From: a virus
Lineage: Duplodnaviria; Heunggongvirae; Uroviricota; Caudoviricetes
Direction: 5' to 3' (one strand)
Virus record (IMG/VR): IMGVR_UViG_2630968500_000005
Length of the DNA: 10,132 bases
Shown: piece after piece, positions 1 through 10,132 of the stretch
How positions within the stretch are numbered: position 1 is the first letter of the stretch
Layout: each line of letters begins with the position of its first letter
Notes under the pieces: model-generated
Databases searched by the model: none
Seen by the model: only the letters and a program-made list of their open reading frames with translations
Told to the model about the DNA's origin: nothing
Position numbers and translations under genes: made by a program

Positions 1-536
1 GAGGCGGTGCAATTTGCGCTATCGCGGTGATGATTACCATCGTGATGGGTAATGGCAATGTGCGAACCAACCAGGCGGGGCTTGAGCTTATCGGAAGCGC
101 TGAAGGTTGCCGACGTGATCCATACATGTGCCCGGCAGGGGTATGGACTGACGGGATCGGTAATACACACGGGGTAACGCCGGGTGTGCGAAAAACAGAC
201 CAGCAAATCGCCGCTGATTGGGAAAAGAATATCCTGATCGCTGAACGCTGTATTAACCAGCACTTCCGGGGCAAAGACATGCCCGATAATGCCTTCAGTG
301 CAATGACAAGCGCGGTATTCAATATGGGATGCAATAGCTTACGGACCTACTACAGCAAAGCGCGAGGCATGCGAGTAGAAACGTCCATCCACAAGTGGGC
401 GCAGAAAGGGGAATGGGTGAATATGTGTAACCATCTCCCTGATTTCGTGAACAGTAACGGCGTGCCCCTGCGAGGCTTAAAGATTCGCCGTGAAAAAGAA
501 CGCCAGCTTTGCCTGACGGGACTGGTCAATGAATAA
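1..536 (+). CDS. lyz: SAR endolysin (P1 Lyz-type lysozyme), 5'-partial; true start about 20 nt upstream of the window
   Basis: The frame is open from nt 3 and reads GGAICAIAVMITIVMGNGNVRTNQAGLELIGSAEGCRRDPYMCPAGVWTDGIGNTHG..., a Gly/Ala-rich weakly hydrophobic N-terminus (SAR domain) followed by a T4-lysozyme-like E-x8-C/D...T-D-G-I-G motif. Cys codons sit at 15-17, 108-110 and 129-131 and a Glu codon at 102-104, the spacing recalled for P1 Lyz Cys13/Glu42/Cys44/Cys51. Stop TAA at 534-536. The GTG at 27 used by the ORF track is an internal Val codon, not the start. Confidence 0.9.
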   Translation, partial: GGAICAIAVMITIVMGNGNVRTNQAGLELIGSAEGCRRDPYMCPAGVWTDGIGNTHGVTPGVRKTDQQIAADWEKNILIAERCINQHFRGKDMPDNAFSAMTSAVFNMGCNSLRTYYSKARGMRVETSIHKWAQKGEWVNMCNHLPDFVNSNGVPLRGLKIRREKERQLCLTGLVNE

Positions 537-783
537 ACTCCGGCAGCTCCGCCGACTTTCGACAATGAAGTTATCGCTGGCGGCGATAGTTTTCGACTCG
601 ATTTTCATGGCGGTATATGTGCTCAATGAGTCGTGGCCACTGGAACCGCTATTATATGCCGGGCTTCGGCTGTGCCTGACATTTTTGAGCATGGCTGCAA
701 GATTGATGCAGCAGAAAGAAACCGCTTCAGATTGTCCACGCCGCGCGGTGCGCAAATATATGGCACGCAGGCGAAAGCGATAA
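529..783 (+). CDS. hypothetical small membrane protein (84 aa, two predicted TM segments, strongly basic C-terminal tail); holin/pinholin-like topology, function unproven
   Basis: ATG at 529 overlaps the lyz stop (ATGAATAA), suggesting translational coupling. Hydrophobic stretches LSLAAIVFDSIFMAVYVL (about nt 574-628) and LLYAGLRLCLTFLSMAARLM (about nt 649-708), then tail RRAVRKYMARRRKR. Stop TAA at 781-783 sits 14 nt before an intrinsic terminator. Several rare Arg codons and no clear SD keep confidence low. Confidence 0.4.
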   Translation: MNKLRQLRRLSTMKLSLAAIVFDSIFMAVYVLNESWPLEPLLYAGLRLCLTFLSMAARLMQQKETASDCPRRAVRKYMARRRKR

Positions 784-796
784 TAGTTAACGATAC

Positions 797-822
797 CCCC
801 GGCAGCCGCCGGGGTTATTTTT
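797..822 (+). terminator. rho-independent terminator between convergent lysis and head genes
   Basis: Perfect 7-bp GC stem CCCCGGC (797-803) / GCCGGGG (808-814) with 4-nt loop AGCC, followed immediately by TTATTTTT (815-822). It lies 14 nt after the 529..783 stop and just past the pro stop (828-830) on the other strand, so it may act in both directions, with a weaker U-tract on the minus strand. Confidence 0.65.
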
Positions 823-827
823 GGTGG

Positions 828-3624
<2,797 letters not shown>

Positions 3625-6600
3625 ATGAACAAGCTATCTATGGGGGTGTTTCGCTGTTCAAGTGTCAGCGAAATATTGAAATACATTAGGGCAATAACAT
3701 CTCACCGAGCGCCGATTAGATACGGCGTGGAAAAGGTGGAAGGCAAAAGCTATGACCGACTACGCCGGGAGGCGAATCAGAAGGCGATAGATTTGCTTAA
3801 TTCGCTGGTGGACGGCGCGACACTGACAGATGAACAGCGCCAGATCCTGGCTGGGTACACCGGTGAAGGCGGCATTGGCGGGTCCGTCTCCGAATATTAC
3901 ACACCAAAGCCGATCGCTGAAGGTGTCTGGGAGATCATGAAGCTCTACGGCGCGGACGTAGGTAACACTCTGGAACCATCGGCGGGAACCGGCGTTTTTA
4001 ATGAGACAAAACCGGTTGGTACGGTGATGACCGCGACTGAGATCAGCAGTGTTTCCGGTCGTATAAACCAGTTGTTACACCCGGAAGACAGCGTACAGAT
4101 TTCCCCGTTCGAACAGCTGGCTATAAGCACGCCTAACGATTCATTCGACCATGTTGTGGGTAACGTTCCGTTCGGCGGTCGTGATAACACACGCAACATC
4201 GATAAGCCTTACGCAGAAGAAACGGACATGGGTTCTTACTTCATGCTCCGCATGCTGGACAAGATAAAGCCAGGCGGATTCATGTGCGTGATTGTGCCGC
4301 CGTCCATTGTTTCAGGTTCAAACATGAAGCGGTTACGCCTGCGCCTATCACGGAAAGCTGAATTTCTTGGTGCCCACCGCTTGCCTACCGGTACTTTTGA
4401 CGCAAACGGGACCAGTACGGTCGTTGACGTGGTGCTGATGCGCAAACATCCGGCGGAGATGGCTGAGAAAATCCCCCTGGTGGATGAAGGCACTCTTGAA
4501 TCGGCAAATGTGCTTTGGCCAACGTTTATTTCTGGCAAGTGGTTTGAAAAGGATGGCCGCCGGTTTGTTCATGGCACTCAGGAGAAGGGATTCCAGGGGC
4601 GTATTGAGGTTCGTGCCGACGGTCAGATTGATAACCAGGCTCTTAAAGCGAAGCTGATTCATCGTTTCGAAAGCCGTATCGACTGGTCTTTGCTCGATAT
4701 GGCTGAACCGTCACCGACCGCAGACGTTGTTGGTGAAGGGGAAATGCGCCTGATTAATGGTGTATGGCAAAAATATGCTGGTGGTCGCTGGATTGAAGCT
4801 GATGCCGGGAAGGAACTTAAGATCGATGCTGCCAGTTATGGCGCGGATAGCTGGGAGGCTCTTCAGCGTAACCTGACTACAACAGAAGGCCGTCTCGGCA
4901 TGACATTTACCCAGATGGCAAATGTCCGCGATAAGTACACCACATCAATCAGCGACGATATGGTGCAGCTGGTGGACTGGATTAACAGCCAGCCTGAAAA
5001 ATACCGTGAACGCTTGTATCGTGGGGCGATGATTGGCCGGATGTTAATTGAATATCAGGATATGAAGGCCGCCGGGCATAGTGCTGAACAAATCGAACAG
5101 CAGCGCCTTTCTCTGGTATCCCGTTTGCAGGCAGAGATTGACCGTTTTGGTAACCCCGGTCGCGGTCCGATAGCGAAATTATCGGGGAGCGGTGCGCGCG
5201 CCTGGTTTGCTTTCCGTGGTGCAATTAAGCTGGATGGCACTATTTCTGACGAGCTGACAGGAAAACTGGTTACGCATGATTCCAGCGCCAGTTATGACTC
5301 CACCAGCTATCAGGACACCCTGCGTTATCTCTACAGTGATCTCACTCGCGATCCAATCCAGCTCGATGATTTCCGCCTTGCGTTTACCGGCGAACTGCCA
5401 GCCAGTGATGACGAGTTGCTTAATTTATTGGCCAGCACCCCTGGTATTGCGGTTTCACCGTATGGCGGGATTGTTCCGTTCGCCCGCGCCACCAGCGGCG
5501 ACATTAACGAGATAGTAGCTCCAAAACAGGAATTCCTTGCCACACTCCCCGACGGTCCAGTAAAGAACAACGTCCTTAATCAGCTGGCAGCGATCGAAGA
5601 GAAGCGCATCAAGACGCCAGCAGAGAATATCCGGTTTAAGCTCAATAGCCGTTGGTTCGACCGTTCCGTCATTCTGGAATTTTTGCAGGAAAACGGCTAT
5701 CCGGATCTGCGCTATGTGCAGTCAGTGCAGCTGGAAGGCGACGAAATGGTTTCTGACACCTATCACGGTGGTGATGGTCTGTTCGTCGGGCACCGATACG
5801 GTGTCGTCCAGCGCAAGGATAAAGAAACAGGCGAGATCCGCTACGAGTGGGACCGTAAATCAGGTGAAAACGCGACCGGGTTCCCGGCACAACTGGAAAA
5901 GTATCTCAATGGTGCACGTATTGGTGGCAAAGATAGCGCGACGGCGAACGGCTACCGCGAGCAGATGGCACTGCTTGAGGACCAGTTCAATAAGTGGATC
6001 AAGACGCACGATCGCTACGATGAGCTGGTTGCCAAATACAACGATGTTTTCAATAGCAATATTCCGTATGAACATTCTGGCGATCCGCTTGGGTTGAAGG
6101 GATTAAGCGGTAAGCGCCAGCCATTTGATTACCAGAATAGCGAGGTGCGCCGACTGTCCGAAGATGGGCGCGGCATCCTGGGCTTCGGCACCGGGCTGGG
6201 TAAAACCACGACCGCGCTGGCGCTTGAGGCGTTCAACTATGAGAACGGTCGCTCCACCCGTACTGCGTATGTAGTGCCTAAATCAGTGCTGGAAAACTGG
6301 TATTACGAAGCAAAAGAATTCCTGAGTGAAGAGGCATTCAGTAACTACCTGTTCGTCGGTCTTGATGTGCTGATGGATGGCGATCAGATTCGCCAGGTGC
6401 CGGTGCTCGATGAGAACGGTAAACCTGTTCTTGGTACTGATGGCACTCCAGTTATGCGCGATGCCCTTAAACTGGCAGATGAAGCCACTATCACGGCGCG
6501 TATGAACGCGATCCCGCACTCAAATTACCGTGCAGTCGTGTTTACCAAAGAACAATACGCCCGCATTCCGCTACGTGATGACACCGTAGATGAGCATGCA

Positions 6601-9600
6601 CAGGATATGCTTTATGACTTCGTTGCTGCCGGGCGCGTAGCCAGCGCAATGAACTCCGACTCCCACCGCAAAGAGGCCGCGCGTCGCCGGGTATTGTCGG
6701 AGTATTCAGATACCGGTACCGAAAAAGCAGAGAAGTATCCGTACTTTGAGGATATGGGCTTCGACAGCGTGATTGCTGACGAAGGCCACAACTACCGCAA
6801 TAGCTATAAAAATGGTCGCGAAGCGTCACAGCTGGCCTATCTGCCCACCAGCGCGGTGGCGCAATCGGCGCGAGATATGGCAATCAAAAACGCGTACCTG
6901 ATGAAAAAGAATGGCGGGCGCGGGCCGGTTCTCCTGACTGCAACGCCAGTCGTTAACACTCCGATCGATGCATACAACATGCTTTCTCATGTTCTGCCGA
7001 AGGAATACTGGCAGAAGATGGGGATCTACGGTCCTGATGACTTCGTTAAATTCTTCGGCAAGACCAGGCTGGAAACGGTACAGAAAATCAGCGGTGAAGT
7101 TGAAGAAAAAATGGCGCTGGTGGGCTTTGAAAACCTTGATGCGCTGCGCGGCATATTCCATCGCTGGACAACGCTTAAAACGGCGGAAGACGTTAAGGAT
7201 ACCGTGGAGATCCCGGAGCTGGACGAACACCAGCAGGATGCACCACTTACTGAAGAACAACTGGCGGCGTATGAAGAATTACGCCAGCAGGCGGAAGCGG
7301 CGGCCAAAGCCAACAATGGCGTAACGACCTCGGTCGATGAAGACGGAGTGATTGAGCACGAGAAAGCCCGTCCGATCTTCTCAATAATCAGGGATATGGA
7401 CCGCGTATGTACTGACATGGACCTGTACTATCGCCGGATCACCTATCGTTTCCTGCCGGAGTACGCCGATGCAGTGCAGCAACTGGCGGACAGTTTGCCT
7501 AAACAAGCCACCAGCGAAGACGACGACAGTGATGATTCAATCACGCAGCAATCGCAATACTCCCTGATAGATAAGGGCGAGTTTATTCAGTTGCAGGTTC
7601 CGGAAGCGTTTGAGCAGGAAGTGAATAAGCGCCTGGCCAGGTTTGGCATTGACGAACAGACCGTAACTCACCCCGTTACACCCAAATACGCGAAGCTGAT
7701 CGCCACGCTGAAGGAGTTTTTCCCGGAAGGTAAGCAAATCATCTTCACGGACGAAAAAACGCAGCACCAGAAGCTCAAGCGCATTATCTGCAATGCTCTT
7801 AACCTTGAACCTTCAAAGGTGGGGATCCTGAATGCTCAGACGGTTGCCGAGGCAGGTAAAACCGGTAAGAAACTGAAAGCGGTTAAACCGCCGAAAGAGT
7901 TACCGGATGAACCAACAGATGCACAGATAGCGAAATACAACGAGCAAATGGCTCTGTATGACGCCTATATCGCGCAGCAAAATGAAATGTCGTTGGGCGG
8001 TCTGGAAAAGATTGCAGCCGACTTCCAGGAGGGCCGGACTCCGATCATCATCTGCAACAAAAAGGCAGAGGTGGGTATCAACCTGCATCGAGGAACGACG
8101 GATATCCACCACCTGACGTTGCCGTGGACTCCAGCCAGTATCGCACAACGTAACGGTCGCGGTGCCCGAGTTGGCTCCAACCGTGCAAGCGTTCGCGTTC
8201 ATTACTACTGCGGCAAGGGGTCTTTCGATGAATACCGACTGAAGACGCTGAAGCGTAAAGCAGGCTGGATCTCCGATATCCTCCGTTCAGATAAGTCAGA
8301 AATGGAGAACGCCGATGCCAACGATATGATCGAAATGCAGATGTATACCGCTAAGGATGATGGCGAACGTCTGGCAATGATGCAGGTTCAAATGGATAAG
8401 GCGAAAGCCGCGCAACGCGCTCGCCAGAAAGAACAGGCTACTATCGACCTTCAGAACTACATCAAGGCGCAGCACGCAGCTGGCGAGGATGTGGAGGTAC
8501 TTACCGCTGAATTAGAGCGAAACAAAGCGGAACTTGAAAAGACCACCGCCGAGGTAGCTAAATTCAAACAGGCGGCAATGGCCAAAGCAGCTGATAACGC
8601 AGACTGGAAGACCCGCTGGGGTAGCGTCCATCACACAGACCGTACGTTGTTAGCACAGTATCGCGCGTCGTTGAAAAGCGCCATTCAGCGCAAGGCTAAT
8701 ATCTCTCAAGCCATCTCCCGCTATGAGAAATTATTGAACCGTACTCAGAAGGCCGCGACGGATATCAAACGCCTGCGCCCGCTGGTGGAGGATGCAATAA
8801 ATAAAGGCATTCTGGATGTTGATCCTGATCTGGTTAACCATGCGAGTGAGTTCCTTGTTATCGGCGATCGCTCATGGCGTGTAGGCCAATACTACGATTG
8901 TGCCGGTGATATCGTTCGCATTAAGTCGCTGGACTTCGACAGCCAGCGCGCAGACGTGGAGATCATCTTTACCTTCAAAGGCACCAAATCGGGTAACTGG
9001 GATGTGAAGACGCTGGATAAACAGGTAGATGTGACTCCCGATGAAGATGCTGTTATGCAGAAAATCAGTGGTGGCGTCTCCATCGCCGGGATTAACGGCA
9101 TCATTTCCTGTGACGATTTCTACCGTTTCCAGCAGCGCGGCATGATCAAAATCACTGACTCATACGGCGTTCAGACTACAGAGTCAGGCTATAGCATTGA
9201 TTTTGTTGGTACCTATACGGACCCACTGAAGCATGCGGTTTACCCGGATCGCCGTGACGGCGCGCTGAAGTCGTCAATTGCTAAATGGGTGCTTGGTATG
9301 ATGTCGGAAGGGAATAACCGCCAGGTCCGTTTGGCAGAAGTATTCCTGACTGAACTGTTTGGCTCCAATTATAGCGATGTAATCGCGTCATACGGAGATA
9401 CGTTATCCCCTGAAGCAATTCAGGAGAAAATAGCGGATGCGATCGCCAGAATGCCGGAGAAAACAAGCCAGGGGGCTACTCGTAACGGGGATTCTGAACT
9501 TGAGATCACCAATGCCATTTTCGGTACCAATGAGTTCCGGGCGTCAGATTTTGAGGTCACCACAGCACAGTTTGGCCCCATTGGCATTTACAGCAATAAA

Positions 9601-10098
9601 GACGAGATCAAGCAGGCAATGGACGCAGCAAGCGCGCGCATTGCAGCAGAACGGAAAGCCAATCTGAATCATGCAGTCGCCGCGCTGACTCAATCGTGGG
9701 TAACAGCAATCAGGGAGGCCGCCACCACAGGGAAAATCACACCGGCAATTGCGGATGTCGTAAACAACGGCTCTAAATTTATGGATGCCTATCAAATGGA
9801 TGCGGTGCAGTTGCCATCAGCCTATGGCCAACTCAGCTATCGCATGACCTACAACCTGGTATCAATGTTTATCATTGACGTCATGTTTCCGGGCCAGTGC
9901 GGCAATACTGCCTTCTTCTTCAAGAGCCAGCCTGACCAGTTCCATTTTGAATTCAGGGGAATAGTGTTTCCGGGGAAGTCTTTCTTTAGCGCGCATGAGG
10001 TGTCCACCTGCAAAATAAGTGGGTGCTTAAGTTACAGGATCCTGGATTCGGGACCAGACGGTACTCAGACGACGCTTACCTGTGTTGTTCTAAGGTGA
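3625..10098 (+). CDS. darB: DarB-like antirestriction protein: N-terminal N6-adenine DNA methyltransferase-like domain plus SF2 helicase core; 3' end appears IS-disrupted (native coding probably ends near 9870)
   Basis: ATG at 3625 with SD AAGGA 6 nt upstream. MTase motifs: TPKP (3901-3912), motif I LEPSAGTGVF (3970-3999), motif IV-like NVPF (4162-4173). Helicase motifs: Walker A GLGKTT (6196-6213), DEGH (6778-6789), TATP (6937-6948), motif VI QRNGRGAR (8146-8169). Acidic cluster SEDDDSDDS (about 7513-7539) and a coiled-coil region (about 8370-8620). A giant MTase-helicase fusion next to prt/pro/lyz matches P1 DarB. The last ~75 codons (about 9874-10098) are the antisense of an IS3-family OrfA fragment and are unlikely to be native. 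Confidence 0.85.
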   Translation: MNKLSMGVFRCSSVSEILKYIRAITSHRAPIRYGVEKVEGKSYDRLRREANQKAIDLLNSLVDGATLTDEQRQILAGYTGEGGIGGSVSEYYTPKPIAEGVWEIMKLYGADVGNTLEPSAGTGVFNETKPVGTVMTATEISSVSGRINQLLHPEDSVQISPFEQLAISTPNDSFDHVVGNVPFGGRDNTRNIDKPYAEETDMGSYFMLRMLDKIKPGGFMCVIVPPSIVSGSNMKRLRLRLSRKAEFLGAHRLPTGTFDANGTSTVVDVVLMRKHPAEMAEKIPLVDEGTLESANVLWPTFISGKWFEKDGRRFVHGTQEKGFQGRIEVRADGQIDNQALKAKLIHRFESRIDWSLLDMAEPSPTADVVGEGEMRLINGVWQKYAGGRWIEADAGKELKIDAASYGADSWEALQRNLTTTEGRLGMTFTQMANVRDKYTTSISDDMVQLVDWINSQPEKYRERLYRGAMIGRMLIEYQDMKAAGHSAEQIEQQRLSLVSRLQAEIDRFGNPGRGPIAKLSGSGARAWFAFRGAIKLDGTISDELTGKLVTHDSSASYDSTSYQDTLRYLYSDLTRDPIQLDDFRLAFTGELPASDDELLNLLASTPGIAVSPYGGIVPFARATSGDINEIVAPKQEFLATLPDGPVKNNVLNQLAAIEEKRIKTPAENIRFKLNSRWFDRSVILEFLQENGYPDLRYVQSVQLEGDEMVSDTYHGGDGLFVGHRYGVVQRKDKETGEIRYEWDRKSGENATGFPAQLEKYLNGARIGGKDSATANGYREQMALLEDQFNKWIKTHDRYDELVAKYNDVFNSNIPYEHSGDPLGLKGLSGKRQPFDYQNSEVRRLSEDGRGILGFGTGLGKTTTALALEAFNYENGRSTRTAYVVPKSVLENWYYEAKEFLSEEAFSNYLFVGLDVLMDGDQIRQVPVLDENGKPVLGTDGTPVMRDALKLADEATITARMNAIPHSNYRAVVFTKEQYARIPLRDDTVDEHAQDMLYDFVAAGRVASAMNSDSHRKEAARRRVLSEYSDTGTEKAEKYPYFEDMGFDSVIADEGHNYRNSYKNGREASQLAYLPTSAVAQSARDMAIKNAYLMKKNGGRGPVLLTATPVVNTPIDAYNMLSHVLPKEYWQKMGIYGPDDFVKFFGKTRLETVQKISGEVEEKMALVGFENLDALRGIFHRWTTLKTAEDVKDTVEIPELDEHQQDAPLTEEQLAAYEELRQQAEAAAKANNGVTTSVDEDGVIEHEKARPIFSIIRDMDRVCTDMDLYYRRITYRFLPEYADAVQQLADSLPKQATSEDDDSDDSITQQSQYSLIDKGEFIQLQVPEAFEQEVNKRLARFGIDEQTVTHPVTPKYAKLIATLKEFFPEGKQIIFTDEKTQHQKLKRIICNALNLEPSKVGILNAQTVAEAGKTGKKLKAVKPPKELPDEPTDAQIAKYNEQMALYDAYIAQQNEMSLGGLEKIAADFQEGRTPIIICNKKAEVGINLHRGTTDIHHLTLPWTPASIAQRNGRGARVGSNRASVRVHYYCGKGSFDEYRLKTLKRKAGWISDILRSDKSEMENADANDMIEMQMYTAKDDGERLAMMQVQMDKAKAAQRARQKEQATIDLQNYIKAQHAAGEDVEVLTAELERNKAELEKTTAEVAKFKQAAMAKAADNADWKTRWGSVHHTDRTLLAQYRASLKSAIQRKANISQAISRYEKLLNRTQKAATDIKRLRPLVEDAINKGILDVDPDLVNHASEFLVIGDRSWRVGQYYDCAGDIVRIKSLDFDSQRADVEIIFTFKGTKSGNWDVKTLDKQVDVTPDEDAVMQKISGGVSIAGINGIISCDDFYRFQQRGMIKITDSYGVQTTESGYSIDFVGTYTDPLKHAVYPDRRDGALKSSIAKWVLGMMSEGNNRQVRLAEVFLTELFGSNYSDVIASYGDTLSPEAIQEKIADAIARMPEKTSQGATRNGDSELEITNAIFGTNEFRASDFEVTTAQFGPIGIYSNKDEIKQAMDAASARIAAERKANLNHAVAALTQSWVTAIREAATTGKITPAIADVVNNGSKFMDAYQMDAVQLPSAYGQLSYRMTYNLVSMFIIDVMFPGQCGNTAFFFKSQPDQFHFEFRGIVFPGKSFFSAHEVSTCKISGCLSYRILDSGPDGTQTTLTCVVLR
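9862..9996 (-). pseudogene. truncated IS3-family transposase OrfA (N-terminal HTH fragment, 44 codons)
   Basis: Direct translation of the reverse complement of 9862-9996 gives 44 residues with the IS3-family OrfA HTH signature, then a premature stop where homology to darB resumes. Too short to be functional. Confidence 0.45.
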
Positions 10099-10132
10099 GC
10101 ATATCACCTCTGTTCAGGTGGCCAAATTCAGT
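9874..10132 (-). mobile_element. IS3-family insertion sequence remnant (left end plus 5' part of transposase OrfA), abutting or truncating darB
   Basis: The minus strand encodes MRAKERLPRKHYSPEFKMELVRLALEEEGSIAALARKHDVN from ATG at 9996-9994, a close match to the helix-turn-helix pattern of IS3/IS911-type OrfA (..R.YS.EFK.E.V.L....G.S...AR...V.). The match stops abruptly near 9874, after which the frame hits TGA (9864-9862) and the sequence is darB-like. The outer terminus is probably near 10112-10116 (RC TGAAC...) or beyond the window. Boundaries are approximate. Confidence 0.5.

Follow-up and report, generated by a model that had tools for sequence, protein, structure and literature searches.

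The late lyz-lydD lysis operon of a P1-like phage-plasmid: a caged SAR endolysin and its probable cognate pinholin

Introduction

The lysozyme Lyz of phage P1 is the founding member and prototype of the SAR (signal-arrest-release) endolysins, and its pairing with LydD is close to textbook material. LydD itself was reportedly named in 2004. Sec export delivers P1 Lyz to the inner membrane, where its N-terminal SAR segment keeps the enzyme inactive (work cited in PMC9025707), and it is caged there by a disulfide that locks the active-site Cys51 to Cys44 (P1 Lyz structures; literature cited in PMC9025707). On depolarisation of the membrane, the SAR segment exits the bilayer, after which Cys13 swaps into the disulfide, leaving Cys51 free, so that the enzyme refolds and murein is degraded (literature cited in PMC9025707).

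LydD was classed as a pinholin by Bednarek et al. (2022, PMC9025707), who reported that E. coli is lysed more quickly and to a greater extent by cloned lyz-lydD than by lyz on its own, that lysis is delayed in lydD mutants, that plaques are formed by a lydA lydC double mutant but not by a lydA lydD double mutant, and that LydD alone with Lyz suffices for plaque formation. In E. coli liquid culture the main lysis trigger is LydA and not LydD (PMC9025707), so the role of LydD depends on conditions, and LydA, LydB and LydC, whose genes all lie elsewhere, influence which of the triggers prevails in a given host and under given growth conditions (PMC9025707). By CRISPRi, lyz is essential, while lydD and lydE are non-essential (PMC10695390).

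The S21 68/R21 pair of phage 21 resembles LydD/Lyz in that a small protein with two transmembrane (TM) segments is encoded beside a SAR endolysin. In phage 21, S21 precedes R21, and the gene order therefore differs from that of lydD, which follows and overlaps its endolysin gene. Functionally, S21 68 is like LydD in depolarising the membrane, freeing the tethered enzyme and being unable to serve a cytoplasmic endolysin (PMC9025707). The class II holins of P1 itself, LydA and LydC, share with LydD two predicted TM helices, a charged C-terminus and cooperation with Lyz (PMC9025707), whereas they are unrelated to it in sequence, belong to an unlinked operon and, unlike LydD, support endolysin R.

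Results

The locus compared with P1, P7 and more distant relatives

The window analysed here is a 10,132-nucleotide stretch of a Caudoviricetes record (IMG/VR IMGVR_UViG_2630968500_000005), of which positions 1-1000 match P1, P7 and other Punavirus genomes over their full length at 97-98% nucleotide identity. Over the same 1,000 positions, identity is 100% with the 148-kb plasmid unnamed1 (NZ_CP060066.1) from E. coli strain G5, itself among the approximately 500 P1-like plasmids with this segment in PLSDB. Gene names were transferred from the P1 annotation (AF234172) via alignment (Table 1), and the same transfer places the late promoter LPlyz upstream of the window. Compared with the late operon lyz-lydD(-lydE) of P1 and P7 (AF234172, AF503408), the window has its genes in the same order, with the same overlap and a terminator at the same place, and its differences from P1 are only allelic, amounting to two residues in Lyz (N40S, A113V) and two in LydD (T35S, R83K). 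The element is a variant of P1/P7, a 148-kb E. coli plasmid-prophage, and NZ_CP060066.1 carries an ompC-type porin gene about 0.9 kb upstream of lyz that is comparable to nmpC upstream of ssb in P7. On the other side, the 3' end of the convergent gene pro adjoins the terminator and delimits the lysis cassette. We consider it very probable that these genes form the late lyz-lydD operon found in a P1-like phage-plasmid, a bicistronic unit that would encode a caged Lyz and, coupled to it, the cognate pinholin LydD.

Table 1. Positions of the features of the lysis region within the window.
Feature	Position	Strand	Remarks
lyz	3..536	+	SAR endolysin, 5'-truncated at window edge, residues 9-185 + TAA; 99% identical to P1 Lyz
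SAR membrane segment of Lyz, residues 9-28	3..62	+	GGAICAIAVMITIVMGNGNV; KD19 maximum
Cys13 codon	15-17	+	within SAR segment
Glu42 codon of lyz	102-104	+	
Cys44 codon (108-110) to Cys51 codon (129-131)	108..131	+	caging disulfide pair; active-site Cys
lydD start over lyz stop, ATGAATAA	529..536	+	ATG 529-531, TAA 534-536
lydD	529..783	+	84-aa pinholin (by identity to P1/P7 LydD); annotated in P1 and P7; phrog_21930; dN/dS; PMC9025707
Predicted TM helix 1, LydD residues 14-32	568..624	+	invariant Asp23; KD19 1.89; AF2 helix 3-32
lydE ORF	633..848	+	71 codons, GTG start; P1 annotation 'putative antiholin'
Predicted TM helix 2, LydD residues 41-59	649..705	+	invariant Arg47; KD19 1.42; AF2 helix 40-83
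Basic tail, predicted cytoplasmic, LydD residues 60-84	706..780	+	10 K/R, 2 D/E; clade-invariant SDCPRR motif
Intrinsic-terminator-like element	797..822	+	7-bp GC stem 797-803 / 808-814, 4-nt loop, then TTATTTTT
pro	828..1847	-	head-processing protein, convergent neighbour; P1 annotation by alignment

Beyond the P1 clade, a protein search recovered LydD homologues from Salmonella, Klebsiella and other Enterobacteriaceae, with amino-acid identities of 74-82%. The relatives bearing them (L003-L011) are P1-like elements of about 90 kb at 68-73% nucleotide identity, in which ssb (minus strand), lyz and lydD follow one another in the same order and pro is separated from lydD by the insertion of a ProQ-like and a RepL-like gene.

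Lyz and the translational start of lydD

The window begins 22 nt inside lyz, so that codons 1-8 are absent; residues 1-8 were taken from P1, and the cysteine positions (13, 44, 51, 91, 118, 150 and 178) are valid only as P1 numbering. Searches placed the translated product in Pfam PF00959 Phage_lysozyme, a T4-lysozyme-like muramidase domain (1.8e-22; 80 bits, cut-off 22.3), in the endolysin family phrog_7 (2e-66) and next to the P1 Lyz structures 1XJT (E 4e-122) and 1XJU (1e-108) in the PDB. Hydropathy, measured as the Kyte-Doolittle mean over 19 residues (KD19), reaches the maximum of the protein (2.07) at residues 6-24, and residues 9-28 form an N-terminal, Gly/Ala-rich and weakly hydrophobic segment of the SAR type. 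Cys13, Glu42, Cys44, Cys51 and Thr57 are all present in the window Lyz and invariant in the alignment among relatives down to 72% identity. An earlier note on this DNA, made from the sequence alone, had proposed a SAR lysozyme with the Cys13/Cys44/Cys51 arrangement, and translation, domain match, structures and hydropathy together bear this out. Sec export, membrane tethering and release upon depolarisation are known for the 99% identical P1 Lyz and would by that likeness extend to the enzyme encoded here.

The 84-codon ORF that the same note saw overlapping the lyz stop is present, and the overlap spans 8 nt at the ATGAATAA junction. All divergent relatives retain an overlap, either as ATGAATAA or, in the Salmonella clade, as ATGA, and it sets lydD immediately beside a SAR endolysin gene, the position looked for in a pinholin gene. 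Because the Shine-Dalgarno match of the lydD ATG itself is weak (-3 to -6 kcal/mol), we propose reinitiation, whereby ribosomes ending at the lyz UAA would restart at the overlapping AUG and LydD would be made; from these features of the junction we infer translational coupling of lydD to lyz.

Where LydD begins is annotated differently in the source record, NZ_CP060066.1, in which RefSeq/PGAP starts the gene at Met13 to give 72 aa. Variable columns in codons 4-12 are distributed 2/2/7 over codon positions 1/2/3, and since this stretch varies mostly at third positions, the extension ahead of Met13 is evidently also coding, with the start at ATG1. The 72-aa call is thus probably too short, and the comparative data favour ATG1 (84 aa) as the predicted N-terminus. 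Both starts might conceivably be used, with the 84-aa LydD acting as an antipinholin and the 72-aa Met13 form as the active pinholin, in analogy to S21 71/68 and lambda S107/S105. Such a dual start would fit the invariance of Met13 within the P1 clade, the PGAP call itself and the finding that added N-terminal positive charge turns S21 68 into an inhibitor (PMC9025707), yet ATG13 shows no upstream Shine-Dalgarno complementarity in any relative (0 kcal/mol), position 13 is V, I, L or M across the wider family, every family member has a conserved basic segment homologous to residues 1-12, and no second lydD product is reported in PMC9025707. We therefore regard a dual start as improbable and favour a single start at ATG1.

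Selection on the lydD frame

Seeing that P1 and P7 are too little diverged to judge whether lydD is coding, we used distant relatives at 68-73% nucleotide identity and compared Nei-Gojobori dN/dS in the lydD frame with that in the two other frames. The lydD frame is intact in all relatives compared and gave dN/dS values of 0.06-0.13 with dS of 0.5-2.3 overall and 1.3-2.3 at 68-73% nucleotide identity; synonymous sites are near saturation. The +1 frame gave about 1.0-1.3 and the +2 frame, which is that of lydE, 2.0-2.8; over all pairs the other two frames ranged from about 1 to 3, except in one very close pair (0.83). Variable alignment columns in codons 13-84 were likewise distributed 25/14/56 over codon positions 1/2/3. 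The gene lydD is under strong purifying selection.

This outcome, which answers the call of the earlier note for frame conservation and dN/dS across P1-like genomes, also separates the roles that it had left side by side for the ORF: the pinholin-like partner stands, with the P1 annotation and PMC9025707 behind it, and a mere 3' UTR falls to purifying selection. An untranslated stretch between lyz and the terminator might have been suspected from the non-essentiality of lydD by CRISPRi and from the lack of a Pfam match above threshold for LydD, but the probability of this is negligible given an intact frame with dN/dS of 0.06-0.13 near synonymous saturation and neutral or worse values in the other frames, as well as the delayed lysis of lydD mutants and their loss of plaques in a lydA background (PMC9025707). 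We thus take the 3' UTR option as excluded, already refuted by the dN/dS values and PMC9025707 together, because the lydD frame is under strong purifying selection. Two antisense ORFs across this region (477..755 and 623..766) were rejected, with stops in the divergent relatives.

The lydE frame and the end of the transcript

A second annotated ORF, lydE, overlaps lydD in the window and was missing from the earlier note. It is intact here and in P1, and reading it as a real antipinholin gene completing a three-gene cassette would accord with its annotation in P1 and with reported RNA-seq reads over the ORF (PMC8201110). Against such a gene, in every divergent relative (L003-L011) the frame is interrupted by stops at codons 33-44 and in P7 it ends 8 codons early, its product differs from that of P1 at 5 of 71 residues (LydD at 2), and the product has no match in Pfam or PHROG. 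The ORF also reads through the terminator hairpin to a stop codon at 846-848, past the T-tract, so that terminated transcripts would lack the lydE stop. Deleting lydE from the cloned operon leaves lysis unchanged (PMC9025707), in line with its CRISPRi non-essentiality (PMC10695390), and natural plasmids carry IS605-type TnpB insertions at about 831 that alter its end (see also PMC6906374). A functional lydE is accordingly rated very unlikely, and on the comparative evidence the ORF is probably an artefact and not a gene.

The terminator that had been noticed directly behind the small ORF is there as a stem-loop followed by TTATTTTT, beginning 14 nt past the lydD stop, and it thus has the sequence features of an intrinsic terminator, a GC hairpin then a U-tract past the last gene. 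The hairpin alone folds at -14.9 kcal/mol, and the folding energy of the region compared with shuffles is not extreme (z = -1.9). L003, L006 and L008 also possess a GC-rich hairpin (about -15 kcal/mol) with a T-tract 10-12 nt past the lydD stop, and the sequences of their hairpins are unrelated to that of P1 and the window; that the position is kept while the sequence is not speaks for a real transcript end after lydD. The transcript would accordingly appear to end at the hairpin and T-tract, which would make the cassette bicistronic, so that it presumably comprises two genes and not three. A bidirectional terminator was considered and rejected, as GTATCGTTAAC, and no T-tract, comes after the hairpin on the minus strand, and the element looks unidirectional.

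LydD compared with pinholins and class II holins

The genome records of P1 (AF234172) and P7 annotate LydD as 'putative holin', and it matches phrog_21930 'holin' over positions 1-84 of 84 (E 1.1e-57). Two hydrophobic stretches and a tail with 10 K/R uphold the earlier description of the product as having two TM helices and a highly basic tail, and as such it has the build of a pinholin, a small TM protein with a charged C-terminus; its second helix is marginal, with a KD19 of 1.42 that lies under the usual threshold of 1.6 over a segment that includes Arg47. The N-terminal 12 residues contain 4 K/R, Lys14 is an additional one, and an acidic loop (NESWPLEP) joins the hydrophobic stretches. By the positive-inside rule, the basic N-terminus, acidic loop and very basic tail lead us to predict a helical hairpin oriented N-in/C-in, the topology of class II holins. 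AlphaFold2, run on a shallow alignment, gave helices at residues 3-32 and 40-83 at low confidence (pLDDT 65), and a PDB sequence search with LydD returned chance matches only (E > 0.8).

This predicted architecture, typical of class II holins, could equally suit a canonical large-hole holin like LydA, as could the database label 'holin' and the fact that LydD possesses neither the glycine zipper nor the low-charge N-terminus of S21 68 (sequence; PMC9025707). We rate this as highly unlikely in view of the genetics: with lambda R in place of lyz, LydD supports no lysis, whether in a P1 lyz::lambda R phage with LydD only or from cloned lydD plus R (PMC9025707), and cell-shape changes of the SAR-endolysin/pinholin type during lysis depend on LydD (PMC9025707). 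LydD is therefore better read as a pinholin, a function demonstrated for the P1/P7 LydD to which the window protein is 98% identical, and in the window it would act from the inner membrane, triggering depolarisation upon which Lyz would be freed and activated and murein degraded. The pairing of a SAR endolysin with a class II holin- or pinholin-like partner was rightly anticipated in the earlier note, as the P1 annotation and the genetics of PMC9025707 indicate, and so was the location of lydA and lydB elsewhere, which agrees with the P1 annotation. Its treatment of the ORF as possibly unrecognised does not hold, the gene being lydD already in AF234172 and experimentally characterised in 2022.

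Despite the functional parallel to S21 68, no sequence similarity was detected between the two proteins, and matches to LydD are limited to phrog_21930, phrog_1356 and DUF7940. LydD differs from S21 68 in carrying 4-5 positive charges ahead of TM1 and in having no glycine zipper in TM2 (also PMC9025707), where LLYAGLRLCLTFLSMAARL holds a single Gly and no GxxxG-type zipper, which sets it outside the S21 68-type family, and in the invariant Asp23 and Arg47 that lie inside its helices. Because of the N-terminal charges, the missing zipper and the two intrahelical charges, a mechanism by TM1 exit seems unlikely for LydD.

A wider family around LydD

The score of the window LydD with Pfam DUF7940 is 22.7 bits (E 1.5e-4), below the gathering threshold of 27 bits. 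An exhaustive search with a profile built from the LydD clade recovered small proteins of about 54-82 aa (E 1e-17 to 3e-4), most of which score above the DUF7940 threshold and also match PHROG 1356 and 21930 'holin', and the intermediates among them (LydD profile E 1e-17 to 1e-7) reach 36-50 bits with DUF7940. Because these profile-found intermediates pass the DUF7940 threshold, the searches point to LydD as a divergent relative of that family.

Scanning viral contigs for LydD/DUF7940 relatives with single-protein queries, we found one intermediate (P0009) in a 94-kb P1-like viral contig (L026), where it directly follows a SAR lysozyme of the Cys13/44/51 type with an 8-nt overlap; P0009 is without the basic tail. 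Core DUF7940 members (MKLIPNWK..., 68 aa) adjoin endolysins (Phage_lysozyme, PF11860 muramidase, DUF5675) and lie upstream of nested spanin-like ORFs. DUF7940/PHROG 1356 proteins thus resemble LydD in core motif, two-helix layout and location in lysis cassettes beside endolysins, while they differ in that their neighbours include various endolysin types and not only SAR lysozymes, and in that the tail of P1-clade LydD (SDCPRRAxRKYxxRR) is absent from the more distant DUF7940-type relatives. Family-wide, A19, D23, E34, Y43, R47, T51, A57 and R58 are invariant and P40 nearly so (LydD numbering), and with D23 and R47 among the invariant residues each predicted helix would carry a conserved buried charge.

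Discussion

The lyz-lydD system was already known, and our analysis confirms that the observation which drew attention to it was correct. It has little weight as a discovery, and its useful by-products concern annotation. First, the comparative evidence makes lydE, which P1 records still list as 'putative antiholin', a likely spurious ORF. Second, a lydD start at ATG1, with an 84-aa product, is favoured over the 72-aa PGAP call.

The third concerns DUF7940, for which our literature search found no paper mentioning the family by this name. It is possible, although we lean somewhat against it, that LydD and DUF7940/PHROG 1356 constitute a mechanistically distinct family of pinholins, forming pores through the invariant Asp (TM1)/Arg (TM2) pair within the membrane and a conserved basic N-terminal helix and not through TM1 externalisation and a glycine zipper. 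Were this true, a Pfam family of 'unknown function' would gain, through LydD, a function grounded in experiment. As it stands, DUF7940 is tentatively tied to a characterised pinholin, which is a modest, annotation-level addition and not a new system.

The lydD start codon and the lydE frame

Evaluating the two candidate starts of lydD, we found that the RefSeq/PGAP holin call in the source plasmid NZ_CP060066.1 begins at Met13 and yields 72 aa, rather than the 84 aa read from Met1. We favour the 84-aa start on sequence grounds, because variation in lydD codons 4-12 is biased to third positions and the N-terminal basic segment of LydD is homologous throughout the wider family.

The lydE ORF is probably a spurious annotation, judging from comparison of its frame, which carries stop codons in all divergent P1-like relatives compared, ends 8 codons early in P7 and contains the lyz-lydD terminator. 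Rare single-contig protein clusters (P0005, P0006, P0008) possess the N-terminal part of LydD fused by frameshift to a lydE-frame C-terminus; these could represent occasional lydD decay in resident plasmid-prophages, or assembly errors.

Table. Positions of annotated features in the window and in the compared loci
Feature	Sequence	Position	Strand	Remark
72-aa holin call	window; NZ_CP060066.1	565..783; 2767-2985	+	RefSeq/PGAP
lydE ORF	window	633..848	+	'putative antiholin' in P1 records
darB-like ORF, 2157 aa	window	3625..10098	+	
ompC-type porin gene	L012 (NZ_CP060066.1)	7986-9083		upstream of window
ProQ-family and P1 RepL-like genes	L003-L011	~3233-4790	-	
Insertion sites	L027 (NZ_AP027698.1); L028 (NZ_AP018809.1)	~3262; ~3331-4650		natural plasmids
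DUF7940 matches	most of L013-L016, L025, L026; L020	~2501-2750; 1859-2050		

Gene content and insertions around the lysis genes

The interval between lydD and pro holds two inserted genes, ProQ-family and P1 RepL-like, in the divergent ~90-kb P1-like elements of Salmonella, Klebsiella and Enterobacteriaceae (L003-L011). There the 3' end of the ProQ-like gene encloses the lydD terminator hairpin and reaches into lydD itself, overlapping its final 23 nt. Natural plasmids also carry mobile-element insertions at two points, equivalent to window positions ~762 and ~831: at the first, an IS3-family element in one plasmid (L027) cuts off the last ~7 lydD codons (the basic tail), and at the second, other plasmids (L028) have an IS200/IS605-type TnpB element in the terminator-pro interval, for comparison with which there is IS609 in pJIE250-3 (PMC6906374).

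At the far end of the window, P1 homology (98%) in the darB-like ORF ends at ~9870, by coordinate estimate ~0.5 kb short of the P1 darB end, and the C-terminal ~76 codons therefore differ from P1 (region of note, 9871..10132); this point in the 148-kb plasmid may mark a junction left by recombination or by an insertion. Some 0.9 kb upstream of lyz, the source plasmid carries an ompC-type porin gene, which itself follows transposase genes of the IS3 and IS6 families; this is similar to P7, with nmpC upstream of ssb, and unlike P1, which has isaA upstream of ssb.

DUF7940 relatives in phage lysis cassettes

Proteins of Pfam DUF7940 ('unknown function') were found within phage lysis cassettes at seven loci (L013, L014, L015, L016, L020, L025 and the P1-like viral contig L026), adjoining endolysins that differ in enzymatic class; spanin-like ORFs follow downstream in L013-L016, L020 and L025. 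These proteins are distant relatives of LydD, a pinholin characterised by experiment, and the DUF7940/LydD relatives share two invariant charged residues, Asp in TM1 and Arg in TM2.
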